DNA of 64,000 nt from Octopus sinensis. Lineage: Eukaryota. The stretch spans positions 77,748,001 through 77,812,000 of the forward strand of contig NC_043004.1 of assembly GCF_006345805.1 (NCBI RefSeq), given 5' to 3'. The translations under genes and the position numbers were made by a program. The notes under the pieces were generated by a model. That model made no database searches. It was not told the DNA's origin and was given only the letters and a program-made list of their open reading frames with translations. Positions 34,845-40,275 of this stretch are shown here, one piece after another. Within the stretch, counting starts at the first letter, position 1. Each line of letters starts with the position of its first letter.

Positions 34845-34910
34845 TGGCGGCGAGCTGGCAGAAATGTTAGCACGCCGGGCGAAATGCATTGTGGTGTATC
34901 GTACGTCTGT
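34845..34910 (+). mobile_element. 5' head of a tRNA-derived SINE (family B), interrupted by the Tx1 LINE
   Basis: GGCGGCGAGCTGGCAGAAATGTTAGCACGCCGGGCGAAATGC. The intact family sequence can be read at 49080-49237 (minus strand). Confidence 0.8.
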
Positions 34911-35032
34911 TGCTGAGGACTTGTTGTTGGAGTGTGTTCGTGAGTTTCTATTAATTGTTATATTTCTTGCTGTGCCTATTGTTGAAAAAGTTGTAGTATA
35001 GTTTTCTTTCGAAAGCTATCTGTGGTTTTCCC

Positions 35033-35897
35033 ATGTGGGGGAAAACATTAATTGCCGGCAGGGTGCCGAAAAGTTCGTGTACTTCGTCGGGGGACGAATC
35101 GATTAAAAAGAGAAGCAAAGAAAATTGAAAGCTTAATTTTCGACAACGTTTCTGATGTGTCGGAAAGCGAATTTCCAACATTGCCAAGTGTTACGAACAC
35201 TAATAGAAAAAGGAACCATCTAAAATGAAGAAAAGAAAAGTTTTGCGTCAGCGGCTGGTGGTGGAACATGGCAGCTGTCAACTGACATAAAGGAATATTT
35301 AAAATATGATAACGGAACAAAATGGAATTGTCAAAGTACAAATACCAGAGGAAAAAAAAGAAAATCATTATTTTTAAGACCTTTTGCTTAAAAGCACGGA
35401 AAATTGATAAAATAGGTGAACAAAAAATTGTTTAAAACCCATCTGGCAGGACATTACATATCTGGCCAGAGGGAAGAAGTTTGGAACCATCGTGGTGAGG
35501 TTCAAGAATGCAGAAACGGCACAGAGACACTTTATAAAATCTTTAGAATCGGACGACACTATGTTAATCCTAATCTACATGAGAATGAGAACGTCAAAAG
35601 TGCGAATACTTAGAATTCCGCTCGGAGTGAACCCTATGTGCTTGATGGCGGCGGTCCTGGCAAACAGGGAAGATATTAACCTCTGGCAGGCTACCGTCAC
35701 AGAAAATACTTATTGGACAGGTTAGACGCTTAACATCATATTACAGGCTGGCCGAAAAAATTTAGAACAGCTCCCAGAAATCGTGGAAGTAGGGAAGGAA
35801 GTTCTAAACATTTTTGTTGAGGGTTTCCAGTGTGGCCAACTGGGTCACATTAAAAAATACTGTAAAGAAGGTGTAGAAGAATCAGACGGCGAGGGGG

Positions 35898-35935
<38 letters not shown>

Positions 35936-36324
35936 CAGTAGAAAAAATAAACAATAAAAGGAAAATGGAAGGATCGAACCAGCAAAAGCAGAGCGAGCCG
36001 AGACCAAAAAACAAAACAGCCAAGAGAGACAGACCGAGGAAAGCGGAGGGGGTTACGAACAGAGGAATAGCTGCACTATACAGTAAAAACGAAGATTTAA
36101 TGCGGGAAATAAAAACCAGGAAATCAGCGACTCGATTAATTGAACTGTCAGAGAAATATAAAAATTACGAATTGGACGAAAAAACCTACAATATGTTGTC
36201 GAACACATATAGAAAATCGGTCTCAGCATGGAAACTTGATTTTCACCAGTCCATGTTTGAAGGCTTACCATCTCCGACCCTAAGTCAAGAAAAGGTGGAG
36301 AACCCTCTCCACAAGACGCCCTGA
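35033..36324 (+). pseudogene. Tx1 ORF1 (gag-like), frameshifted
   Basis: FQCGQLGHIKKYC knuckle at about 35824-35862; K/E-rich; several stops. Confidence 0.7.
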
Positions 36325-36339
36325 TCTAAAAGGTAAGTC

Positions 36340-39300
36340 ATGTCTATTCACATTGGTTGTATAAATGTTCGTGGCCTGATGTCAAGCTGGAAGCAAGGAC
36401 GTTTTCTAAATGACATCAGGTCGAGAAATTTGGATGTAATTATTGCAACGGAAACCCGGGTGAAGGGGCCAAGAAATCTGCCCCCCCCCCTGAACGGCTA
36501 CGAGAAATACGTTTCTCCGAGTTGGGCGGGGAGGTGGGGTGTTGTTCCTCCTAAAAAGAAACCGAGTAGCCTAAAAAAAGTTGTTTTTTTCTGACCCAGA
36601 AGGCAGGTTGGTCGTTCTCGACCTGACATTCAGTTGTGGCAAGACAATCAGGCTGGTCGCTATTTACGCACCAAACATTATTGGCCCGCAAACTGAATAT
36701 TTTCGTGACCTGGGAAAGTTCCTAGCCACGTCGCATTCGCTAGTACTGTTAGGAGACTTTAATATGTATAGCATACACAGATTGTGTTAGCTCGAACATG
36801 AACAGAAAATGTGACACAGGCTTACGAGATCTGCTATGTCAATTTCAGCTAGCAGATCCATATAGGTTGGAACACCCGAACACACCACAGTGGACGTGGT
36901 CAAATAGTGACGGGTCTTCCAGAACATATCTAGATAGGATTTTAATTAGAGAAACAGGTAAGTCCATAGTCGAGTGTCCACAGTTTTTTCTAGTCAGCTA
37001 CAGTGACCACAAGATGGTTACCTGTAAACTGACGGTAGATAAGTTGCATAGTCAGGAATCTGGCTACTGGAAACTCAACCACGTTCCTTTTTGCGATTGA
37101 GGAGTACAGAAAGCGGATCAAGATGTTAATACAGAGGGCATTAACAGGTACCATCATTAATAACATATGGTGGTACGCTCTAAAAAGAGTCATCAAATAT
37201 GAGTCTATTAGGTTTAGCATAAGTTTAGCTAAGAATAGATGGTCTAGTTAAGCCTGGAGGACTGGTAATGCAGACCAAGCGAGGGTGAAAAGACTGGAGT
37301 TAAAACCAGCATCTTGAAGCCCAACACATGGAAAGTATTGCCAGAGCTAAGTTACGTGCAATAGGAAGTGAAGGAATCAAGGCCGCTGGATGGGCCCTAG
37401 TGGTGGAAGCTCGGCAAGGAAATAAGTTCCTCTATTCGGTCTTTGACGAATCAAAATGGTGTCTTGGTAAACGAATCCGAGAAAATGTGTGAGGCCTTTC
37501 GGGAGTACTTTGCCCAGCTATGGGTGACGGCGGTCCTGGTGGTGGGAGAGCCCTCGAGGGCTTTCTTGCCGGGCTGCCGTGCCTCTCGGGGTCAGGTGCG
37601 GAGTCTTGCGAAGGGACAATCACGCCTGTGGAGGTGAAGGAGGCTTTGGCCGACTGTAAAGCGGGTAAGTCGACGGGACATGATGGTCTTCCGTACGAGC
37701 TGTATAAATGAATGCCAGACTTGTTCGGGCAACTACTGGCTGACGTACGCGAACTGGCAACAGAATTGGCTTATCCCCAGATCTGTGCGCCGGGGAGTAG
37801 TGACGTTGGTCAGAAAGGACCCGGACAAGGGGGACGTTATAGAGAATTTCAGGCCCATCACACTGTTAAACGCAGAAGTGAAGATTTGGGCCAAGGCCTT
37901 AGCAAAAAGGTTGGCGCGTGTCGCGAATAGTATAGTCGGGGAGGCACATACATGTGCCATCCCATGCAGAACCATTCAGGATACCCTCCATCTTATTCGC
38001 TATACCATAGAGAGGGTTGGTAATAAATCTAGCAAAGGTGGGGCATTGGTACATTTGGACCAGTCTAAAGCTCTTGATAGGGTTGACCATCAATACCTGG
38101 CGACTGTGCTTGCGCGGTTTAGCCTGGGCCTTGACTTCCTCAGGTAGTTTATCGCTTTGTACTACAACATTGACTCGATAGTTCGGGTGAACAGTTTCCT
38201 TTCGAAGCCATTCTGTATCAGACGCTCGGTTCGTCAAGGATGTCCGCTCTCACCACTTTTGTACGTGATGGCTCTCGAGCCTTTACTGGGAAGACTGAGT
38301 GGCATCCCGAGAGAACCAGGTCTAGAGGAGTTTGTTACGGCTTACGCGGATGATATCACTATCAGCGTAACCTCAGTGGCACGCCTACGTGAAGTGGGTA
38401 TTGAGGCTTACGAGGAGGTGGCAGGAGCAAAGATTAACCGGGAAAAGTCGGTCGGCTTGCAGCTCGGCACCTGGGTTGGCAAGTCGATGCCTTCAGACAG
38501 CGTTGTTGGGCGCTGGACGGAGGGACCGGTTAAGTTGCTGGGAGTCTGGTTTGGACCAGGTCTCCAAATAGAGAAGAACTGGACGGAGGTATTGAGCAGG
38601 GTTGCTGCAGTAGTCAAGACCTGGTCTTGGCGGTGGCTATCCCTGAGAGGGAGGCCAGAGGTGGTCAATGTGTTTATCGCATCGGTCACTACCTACCGCC
38701 TGACCGTCGTGTCCTGTCCGGATTCGTGGTTGATCAGGTTTGAGAGACAGCTCTTTCGCTTTTTGTGGAAGGGCAGGTCGCCACTTGTGAAACGCTCTGT
38801 CTGCCGTCAAAAGCTTTTAAAGGGAGGTTTAGGGATGCCTTGGTTAATGATGCGCAGACATGCGTTGAGGTTGAGGCACCTCTGGATTCTCCTGGATAGT
38901 GAACGGGTGTGGTCTCCGCTGGCCAGAAAAATGTTCCCCGAGTTCAAAAGTTTTTGCGAACAGGAAGCCTGGTGTTCTCGTAGACCGATGTCGAGTGAGT
39001 GGCATAATGAGTTCCGTAAGGCTCTCTTGCTATTCCGGCGCTTGGGCAACGCCAGCGGTGGGGGTTCCACATGGATTTTATATAGTGGGTTGGTAGAGTC
39101 TGAATGCGACGATGGCCTGGGGTCGACTCTAGGTCTAGGATTTATTCAATTGGACAGCCTGTTTCACCGTACATTTGGGTTGAGAACGTTGAGCAACTTC
39201 CAAGAGTCATTAACCTGGCAATGCTACAGAGGTGCCTTGCCCGTTTGGGATAAGCTCGCAAGACATAGTAAACGTCAGTCGCCGACCTGTCCAAGATGCG

Positions 39301-39690
39301 GGGAGTGGGGGCAGGGAAACCGTCCCTCACGCTATTGTTCAGTGTCCGGAGATAACTGAAATGCTGAACACCTGTTGTCCGGCGAAGGAAAAGTACAGCT
39401 GTCGACTGAGTCAATTATAAAAATTAACCCACCGGGAGTTCTAACGAACGAAGGTAAGAATGTTTTCTCACGGTTGTAGCAATAGCAAAAGAGGCTGTAT
39501 GGAAGACTAGGATAAAAGGAATTAAGACAGGCAACTTTATCTCTGGCCACAACTTACGATCATTTTTTTTCTTTTCATTTGAAAAGGAAGCTTGGCTGGA
39601 GAAGAGGTGTCTGTCGGAGTGTACGTTCCAAAAGAGACGGAAGCATGTTGCACGAGTGTTGTGCGTGCAAGGAACCGTGTGAATAGACGG
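36340..39690 (+). pseudogene. Tx1 ORF2 (APE endonuclease, reverse transcriptase, C-terminal CCHC), frameshifted
   Basis: INVRGL, ATETR, LLGDFN, YLDRIL, SDHKMV, FRPITLLN, LDQSKALDRVDH, VRQGCPLSPLLY, AYADD, CPRCG..ETVPHAIVQC. Confidence 0.9.
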
Positions 39691-39918
39691 AAAAAAAGAA
39701 AAAAAGGTACCAGCGGTAGATCGGGGCTTGTGGGGTCGGAGCGTGGCCTGATCATCGCTTCATTTGTATTGTCTTTGTATTGTTAATTCCATTCGATTTT
39801 TATATATTGTATTTAAATTTTTAAAGTCACATTATATGTAAAATCATATCGTTTCACTGATCCCTTCAGTTGTTCTGTCCATTTCTATGTTTGGCCCCCG
39901 GTGGGTAGTAAAGAAATT

Positions 39919-40275
39919 GGTATTTCGTCTGCCGCTACGTTCTGAGTTCAAATTCCGCCGAGGTCGACTTTGCCTTTCATCCTTTCGGGGTCGATTAAAT
40001 AAGTACCAGTTACGCATTGGGGTCGATATAATCGACTTAATCCGTTTGTCTGTCCTTGTTTGTCTCCTCTGTGTGTAGCCCCTTGTGGGTAGTAAAGAAA
40101 TAGGTATTTCGTCTTTCTTTTATGTTCTGAGTTCAAATTCAACCGAGACTGACTTGACCTTTCGTCCTTTCGGGGTCGATAAATCAAGTACCAGTTGCGT
40201 ACTGAGGTCGATCTAATCGACTAGCCTCTTCTCCTAAAATTTCATTCCTTGTACCTAGAGTAGAGAAGAAGAATC
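39919..40275 (+). mobile_element. Two tandem family-B SINE bodies; the first carries a Tx1-like tail
   Basis: GGTATTTCGTCT..GAGTTCAAATTC (B box) starts at 39919 and 40103. The first copy ends ccccttgtgggtagtaaagaaat. Confidence 0.85.

Follow-up and report, generated by a model that had tools for sequence, protein, structure and literature searches.

A family of long interspersed elements (LINEs) in the genome of Octopus sinensis inserts at one fixed base in the head of an abundant short interspersed element (SINE), and it does so genome-wide. One of its members lies in a 64,000-nucleotide stretch of contig NC_043004.1 (assembly GCF_006345805.1, positions 77,748,001 to 77,812,000 of the forward strand), referred to here as the window, where a LINE of about 5 kb splits a SINE between its A-box-like and B-box-like motifs. 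The single base at which the host SINE is split is called site 1. Our searches covered the whole assembly (2.72 Gb, 13,516 contigs), and they also bear on a second, shorter element: a dispersed SINE that shares the LINE's 3' tail and is often found inserted at the same site in heads of its own kind.

LINE insertion at site 1

To place the 3' ends of the family, we used an exact tail pattern that stops before the junction; it has 146 matches in the genome, the first 43 of which were examined in genome order. These comprise 42 LINEs and one SINE with a LINE-like tail. The LINEs end at site 1 in 41 of 42 cases, and the single off-site copy is a 136-bp truncated element at a site-like sequence. 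An earlier search, with a query extending 8 bases past the junction, found 27 of 30 loci entering the SINE body at site 1, a count weakened by four loci on contig C27 and one identical pair that are not independent; among the other three, one enters a LINE that starts at the site, one has lost its junction to a deletion, and one is unrelated. On the 5' side, 28 of 30 window-type copies begin after the site (preceded by a complete or partial SINE head in 20 cases and by a SINE tail in 8), as do 22 of 25 loci with two further types of 5' untranslated region (UTR), the remaining three falling short of the 5' end. Two off-target copies (L296 and L344) start with site-like bases. The proposal in the preliminary description of the window that this LINE targets an abundant SINE is thus borne out at both ends of the element. 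Neither random 3' flanks nor a single local duplication, named beforehand as the outcomes that would speak against it, is found genome-wide, a single local duplication as the source of the whole arrangement being rejected by the genome-wide loci, the SINE arrays and the subtype agreement described next.

SINE heads fall into two subtypes, with either G or C at the first base after the cut. In the 31 of 40 young loci where the 5' motif was found, the subtype of the head and the first base of the 3' flank agree at all 28 that could be typed (20 C-C and 8 G-G, with 0 discordant and 3 untyped), which argues that the LINE insertions are independent. Outer duplications around the whole array are present at 14 of 24 young and 7 of 10 older loci, compared with 0 to 1 in shuffled pairings; together with the agreement of head and flank, these enclosing duplications indicate that the flank belongs to the target and not to the LINE. 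The inner duplication is approximately 10–16 bp long, and its final bases are often LINE-like rather than host-like, with shared variants recurring across loci. A close variant of the last 16 head bases in the window has 9 exact matches in the genome, 8 of which run directly into the LINE 5' end and the ninth of which lies 221 bp upstream of one such LINE; of the 6 matches to a milder variant, one is located at a LINE, and ordinary heads number 30,602. Because the variant is nearly confined to LINE 5' junctions, the LINE appears to bear target-derived bases at its 5' end. At L103/L104 (L109), a tailed SINE at a second site within the A box (site 2) precedes a LINE and has the LINE-linked variant in its head, which suggests that about 40 target bases were copied at the 5' join.

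Some members of the family retain intact coding sequences. Both open reading frames (ORFs) are open in L270 and L278, and ORF2 is also open in L276 and L292; the intact young copy encodes proteins of 509 and 1133 amino acids. In L270, ORF1 carries a Pfam zf-CCHC zinc knuckle, and ORF2 an apurinic/apyrimidinic (AP) endonuclease (PF03372, E 6e-10), whose best PDB matches are L1 endonucleases (E ~1e-8), as well as a C-terminal zf-RVT match (E 1e-5) that at 26.4 bits falls slightly below the cut-off of 27.5; there was no Pfam match to RNase H on this copy. Compared with solved types only, the reverse transcriptase scores 130 bits to L1 ORF2p vs at most 77 bits to R2, and the protein homologues found are no more than 38% identical and carry no element names. 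Two ORFs, a zinc knuckle in ORF1, a C-terminal zinc motif in ORF2 and the lack of RNase H correspond to the layout of the Tx1 clade, and the LINE is probably of this type, judging by domain layout and nearness to L1 rather than by a tree. Thirty-three copies of the young subfamily are 99.3% alike over the last 1.5 kb, where the window LINE is 94.6% alike to them, and the two share ORF2 and tail (91–92% over the 3' 3.6 kb). The 5' end is reached by 35 of 40 young copies, a frequency of 5' completeness that is unusual for LINEs.

Several side observations concern the family's ends. The 5' UTR and most of the ORF1 DNA differ between the young L264-L303 and the window copy (34903-36270), with ORF2 and tail ~92% alike, and at least four 5'-end types of LINE use site 1. 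One copy (L137) is inserted in the opposite orientation; it occupies the mirror arm of the short inverted repeat that surrounds site 1 in a SINE head. Six LINE–LINE tandems (L304-L309), in which the window family's tail is followed by another 5'-UTR type, share one junction variant and are possibly a unit moved whole by read-through.

In the window itself, an old SINE has taken in both a tailed SINE and the LINE at site 1, in an order that is unreadable from the locus alone. The severed head occupies 34845-34902 (+), with an A-box-like motif at ~34856-34867, and resembles two intact minus-strand heads (49235-49173 and 50151-50110). Its last 16 bases (34887-34902, +) form a variant segment containing a degenerate left copy of site 1 (34893-34902) and are likely the 5' end carried by the window's LINE subfamily itself. 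The LINE (34903-39918, +) is a non-LTR (LTR, long terminal repeat) retrotransposon of L1/Tx1 type, full-length but decayed and of an older subfamily, with a frameshifted ORF1 remnant (35233-36306, +; tblastn with L270 ORF1), an ORF2 remnant with stops and frameshifts (36340-39679, +) that retains AP endonuclease, reverse transcriptase and C-terminal zinc motif, and a 3' tail of ~40 nt without poly(A) (39879-39918, +), whose likeness to the SINE is weaker further upstream. Directly after the tail end, a 12-nt site motif (39919-39930) opens a headless SINE unit (39919-40102, +) with a B-box-like motif (39944-39955), a body and a LINE-type tail (40087-40102). The site motif then recurs at 40103-40114 as the start of a terminal unit (40103-40271, +), 82% alike to the first, that has a body and a different, non-LINE-type tail. 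Outer target-site duplications at 34828-34844 and 40272-40288 (both +) match in 16 of 17 bases, a score not reached by any left/right pairing in 50 shuffles; because this 17-bp duplication encloses both, the head and the terminal unit represent one original SINE. When other sequencing runs were examined for an empty allele, the joints were overwhelmed by contigs of SINE sequence, and nothing reached across the whole locus.

The features read earlier from this locus largely stand: the SINE head is parted from its B box by the 5-kb LINE, the two 3' junctions are nearly identical (with the SINE tail starting at 40087 instead of 40088), and the motif does lie between the A and B boxes of an uninterrupted head with an empty site (49173-49235, minus strand; motif at 49188-49177). 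The near identity of the junctions is, however, partly peculiar to this copy, since the window LINE finishes with the SINE-type tail variant, unlike 98 of the 100 family tails listed first, which have the alternative form (by eye).

The tailed SINE and its sites

The tails of the SINE and the LINE share ~40 terminal bases, with a local alignment score of 61 against a mean of 23, a standard deviation of 4 and a maximum of 36 in shuffles. The SINE is dispersed, and target-site duplications were resolved in 23 monomers. Its head had been described as tRNA-derived, of which the A- and B-box-like motifs, recognised by eye, can be upheld; ARAGORN found 0 tRNA genes in the window, and no tRNA family was among 102 Rfam matches at E ≤10 across 4 loci with intact heads. 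Predicted folds of tail and head, including the LINE tail stem-loop, were no better than those of shuffles (z from -0.6 to 0.9). The SINE body may resemble that of the MetaSINE superfamily, with its 66-bp Meta domain. The available part of a MetaSINE survey has no octopus member in its list (PMC4824008).

Judged on 8 flank letters only, the 87,311 exact copies of the SINE tail in the genome are followed by a G-type site 1 in 32,149 cases (37%) and exactly by site 2 in 1,825. When 87 consecutive tails were read fully, 34 were followed by a SINE body at site 1 and 5 by one at site 2. The window has 571 sites that fit a loose motif and 8 SINE bodies, and so the motif alone predicts ~1.4%; by this estimate from one window, 34 of 87 is an enrichment of ~28-fold, and the same chance yardstick of ~8 SINE bodies per 571 sites applies to the LINE's 41 of 42. 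The motif itself comes from 23 off-target SINE sites with resolved duplications, which share one cut register: a pyrimidine precedes the cut in 19, position +2 is a purine in 20, +3 is T in 19, +4 is A in 19, and +1 is never C. The G-type head fits this motif. That the first flank base of the SINE is templated by RNA, an idea prompted by the G-type bias, was rejected. At the same 23 sites, the duplication leaves out just the final base of the element (mismatched in 20 of 23), and each of the five bases that follow matches in 19 to 21; among 10 C-type junctions, moreover, the head is C-type at 5 and G-type at 4, and the remaining one comes after another C-type junction. Self-targeting by the SINE, as proposed in the preliminary description, is therefore a preference and not a restriction to site 1.

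Several observations count against a SINE that is simply carried by the LINE's enzyme to the LINE's own site. First, 48 of the 87 SINE tails lie outside any SINE head, at the loose motif. Second, only 323 tails precede a C-type site, while C-type heads make up about half of the intact ones listed and 17 of 29 LINE ends use the C-type site, unlike the SINE wave. Third, the usual tail of the LINE is the one we call variant b, and yet the LINE uses site 1; in the SINE, by eye and in the first 100 listed rows for each site, variant b occurs in ~6 of 100 rows for site 1 vs ~91 of 100 for site 2. The avoidance of C-type heads by the SINE wave and their use by the young LINE could reflect timing or a different enzyme, one of which must be invoked; older LINE copies from the first search are mostly G-type.

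Because variant b goes with site 2 in the SINE, the true SINE partner may be a sister family. One such sister LINE (L195), with 59% amino-acid identity to the window family in the C-terminal part, has in its 3' UTR a 26-base stretch in common with the upstream part of the SINE's tail, and since it shares this other part, the partner is best named as the LINE lineage and not as the window family. We infer that the window LINE itself may be a mover of the SINE. Tails may also have been exchanged: in L162 a SINE ends with 34 bases that match the LINE tail and not its own kind, the converse holds for the end of the window LINE, and both are possible template switches or conversions between tails. 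Another tailed SINE in the window (43787-43947, +) is 5'-truncated, lies at a non-SINE site and starts with site-like bases.

Site choice and the origin of the arrays

We consider it very likely that an endonuclease leads the choice of site, that reverse transcription is primed from the target, that a duplication restores the site and that target-derived bases help with joining at the 5' end, with the SINE riding on the shared tail. The LINE endonuclease would nick one base between the A- and B-box-like motifs and prime reverse transcription there, reading a loose core (a pyrimidine before the cut, a purine at +2 and T-A at +3/+4) together with a preference for the head sequence. The ~10–16-bp duplication regenerates site 1 after each insertion. 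The target-derived bases at the LINE 5' end would anneal to the site and help to complete insertion, which could account both for the greater strictness of the LINE (98%, vs ~40% for the SINE) and for its mostly complete 5' ends. The tailed SINE would borrow the enzyme of the LINE or its sister via the shared tail and land in SINE heads, including those of its own kind. A SINE-in-SINE insertion restores a B box behind the host's A box, whereas a LINE insertion parts the boxes by 5 kb. The SINE may, as the preliminary description suggests, be a safe harbour for the LINE, although a dispersed SINE marks no more than a spot at which a short insert was able to persist. A wider scenario is possible, though unlikely: a radiation of Tx1-type LINEs would have divided among themselves the promoters of the commonest SINEs, a passenger SINE would multiply and renew the targets, the C-type head would be an escape later overcome, and short stretches of RNA matching the target, in the 3' UTR as well as at the 5' end, would aid site choice by an AP-endonuclease LINE.

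A role for RNA in site choice can also be framed as an alternative, in which a stretch of the LINE 3' UTR pairs with the displaced top strand and helps to choose the site. The young sister family of L195, whose copies are ~99% alike (766 first-look candidates; L195:150-990; L329-L358), offers one case: all 30 copies examined share their first six flank bases, 28 of the 30 occupy a single position within the head of a second A/B-box SINE, and a 9-nt stretch of the 3' UTR (L195:910-918), in a match noted by eye that may be due to chance, is reverse-complementary to the 9 nt that directly follow that family's cut. In the window family, the tail's last 5–6 nt could pair with positions +3 to +8 of the site. 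Guidance of this kind is nevertheless unlikely, as SINEs with an identical tail end are found at site 2 and at the 48 of 87 unrelated sites as well and the LINE's last bases are predicted to pair within the tail, and it could supplement the choice made by the nuclease rather than replace it.

Quite unlikely, in our view, is a second alternative, tethering, in which RNA polymerase III factors at the A and B boxes bring in the LINE complex and a loose nuclease motif sets the exact base. Ty3 and the Dictyostelium element TRE5 are analogues. Tethering would suit the use of three positions in two different heads with A and B boxes (site 1, site 2 and the sister LINE's site), and it would supply what the loose motif fails to predict by itself. 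But each of the two sister LINEs has its own SINE as target, a sign that sequence is being read; old, diverged copies with the tail labelled B, unlikely to be bound, are commonly targeted; and the site-like starts of L296 and L344 are found off target.

The SINE arrays bear on whether their units were inserted one by one or duplicated. We classified 292 SINE bodies by blastn, from loci chosen partly for their junctions, with 32 tails left unclassified; in this junction-enriched sample, LINE-type tails precede site 1 in 117 of 219 cases vs 0 of 41 for two other tails. Neighbouring units in 49 complete arrays are 67–100% alike, and outer duplications enclose 18 of 37 testable arrays, compared with 0 to 1 in shuffles. 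Among 18 arrays ending in the B tail, first units diverge by 6.5% and terminal units by 13.3% (first lower in 16 of 18, p=0.0006); among 24 ending in a LINE-type tail, the values are 4.8% and 6.3% (first lower in 18 of 24, p=0.024). Both comparisons rely on one consensus per class, and greater heterogeneity is possible in the B family, which tempers the contrast. How far first units lie from one another shows no relation to the spacing among terminal units (Mantel r=0.01 and 0.11 for these distances), and the first and terminal units of one array are no closer than units across arrays (0.194 vs 0.193). The data fit independent landings of younger, upstream units in older SINEs. Arrays carry one head only, and some C-type heads sit on hosts with a B tail; an incoming copy likely joins via homology and can replace part of the host head.

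It is very unlikely that the arrays instead represent a few dimers spread as whole transcripts, or local tandem duplication or unequal crossing-over. Outer duplications would suit insertion of a whole dimer equally well, the pairing of C-type heads with arrays ended by a B tail is absent among monomers, and a few pairs of units are 96–100% alike; moreover, one of the 49 arrays, with 7 units of which the later ones are 98–100% alike, is a local duplication, a point against independent landing in that case. Yet both dimer masters and local duplication are disfavoured because the upstream units are younger than, and unlinked to, the terminal ones. Terminal units are also of many types, and the mixed heads fit replacement by an incoming copy. 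A composite element, in which the SINE body is the LINE's 3' UTR and the head its 5' UTR, has next to no chance of being correct, for although a short target-derived piece travels with some LINE subfamilies, the flanking SINE subtype varies by copy, outer duplications enclose the arrays, and the agreement of head and flank (28 of 28) rejects it for the young subfamily.

Related systems and neighbouring elements

Under the definition of Kojima, a LINE is target-specific when more than 20% of its flanks are of one type (PMC4494074, available text); here, 41 of 42 flanks share both type and position. According to the same source, Mariner, Harbinger and LTR elements all serve as targets of Tx1 families, and a SINE group, SINEU, shares this aim and stacks in tandem. 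The closest parallel is crocodilian Tx1-Mar with SINEU, also a Tx1-type LINE at one position of another abundant transposon: its partner SINEs share its preference to varying degrees (90%, 23% and 13%), as the octopus SINE does partially; tandem SINEU-3 copies sandwich a duplication, ascribed there to sequential insertion; and its 5' extensions are target-derived, as here (PMC4494074). The target of Tx1-Mar is, in contrast, the DNA transposon Mariner-N4_AMi, and the others go to Harbinger or LTR elements (PMC4494074). In the octopus, the target is a SINE head common to the passenger SINE, and therefore the passenger makes new targets; there are also tens of thousands of junctions, and a second pair of LINE and SINE target in the same genome.

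Dewa and Mutsu are further sequence-specific Tx1 families, and the targets of these, like those of Keno, Kibi and Koshi, are host genes, spacers or simple repeats, whereas ours is a mobile SINE. Keno, Kibi and Koshi, with U2 small nuclear RNA and microsatellite targets, resemble the octopus LINE as sequence-specific Tx1 elements on a multicopy target (PMC4494074). Xenopus laevis Tx1L likewise is an AP-endonuclease LINE nested at a fixed site of a non-autonomous element, Tx1D, but this host is a piggyBac-type DNA element independent of the LINE (PMC4494074). Among molluscs, bivalves have head-to-tail tandem SINE arrays, some mixing families; these are rarer (up to 3%) and are discussed as unequal recombination, with no targeting LINE and, in the accessible text, no mention of Tx1 (PMC11481361). 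A SINE-targeting LINE goes unmentioned in the accessible portions of PMC13282606, PMC4758252, PMC4824008, PMC11481361, PMC3747384, PMC5786205 and PMC9115989, and our search of open papers, exclusive of supplements and Repbase, returned no LINE aimed at a SINE head and none in cephalopods. The kind of system, transposon-targeting Tx1-type LINEs, is thus already known, and what seems to be new is a target head shared by the LINE's own likely passenger.

In this arrangement, a SINE that likely parasitises the LINE's enzyme is also the LINE's landing pad, a reversal of the usual relation, and the resulting feedback could explain why a genome of 2.7 Gb contains head-to-tail SINE arrays by the tens of thousands; without this explanation, annotation of repeats would divide such arrays among spurious families. 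The young sister families, with different single-base targets and, in one of them, intact ORFs, offer a natural comparison for how AP-endonuclease LINEs gain or change specificity, one that also bears on how much RNA contributes to targeting, and the strict nesting order can date SINE subfamilies.

Other LINE remains lie upstream of the locus in the window. An internally deleted sister element (30485-31330, +) has the start of its endonuclease fused to the end of ORF2, a related tail, and a position between four-base microsatellite runs; it ends in a microsatellite and is a candidate for a microsatellite-targeting family. At 32257-34300 (-) are ORF1 remains of another LINE, with a zinc knuckle and a duplicated stretch (~32660-32900 and 34010-34260). 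Elsewhere in the genome, two distant LINEs with 27–30% amino-acid identity (L046, ~3195 onward, and L111, ~2479 onward) have their ends at the beginning of the same SINE head or immediately ahead of it, at positions other than sites 1 and 2.

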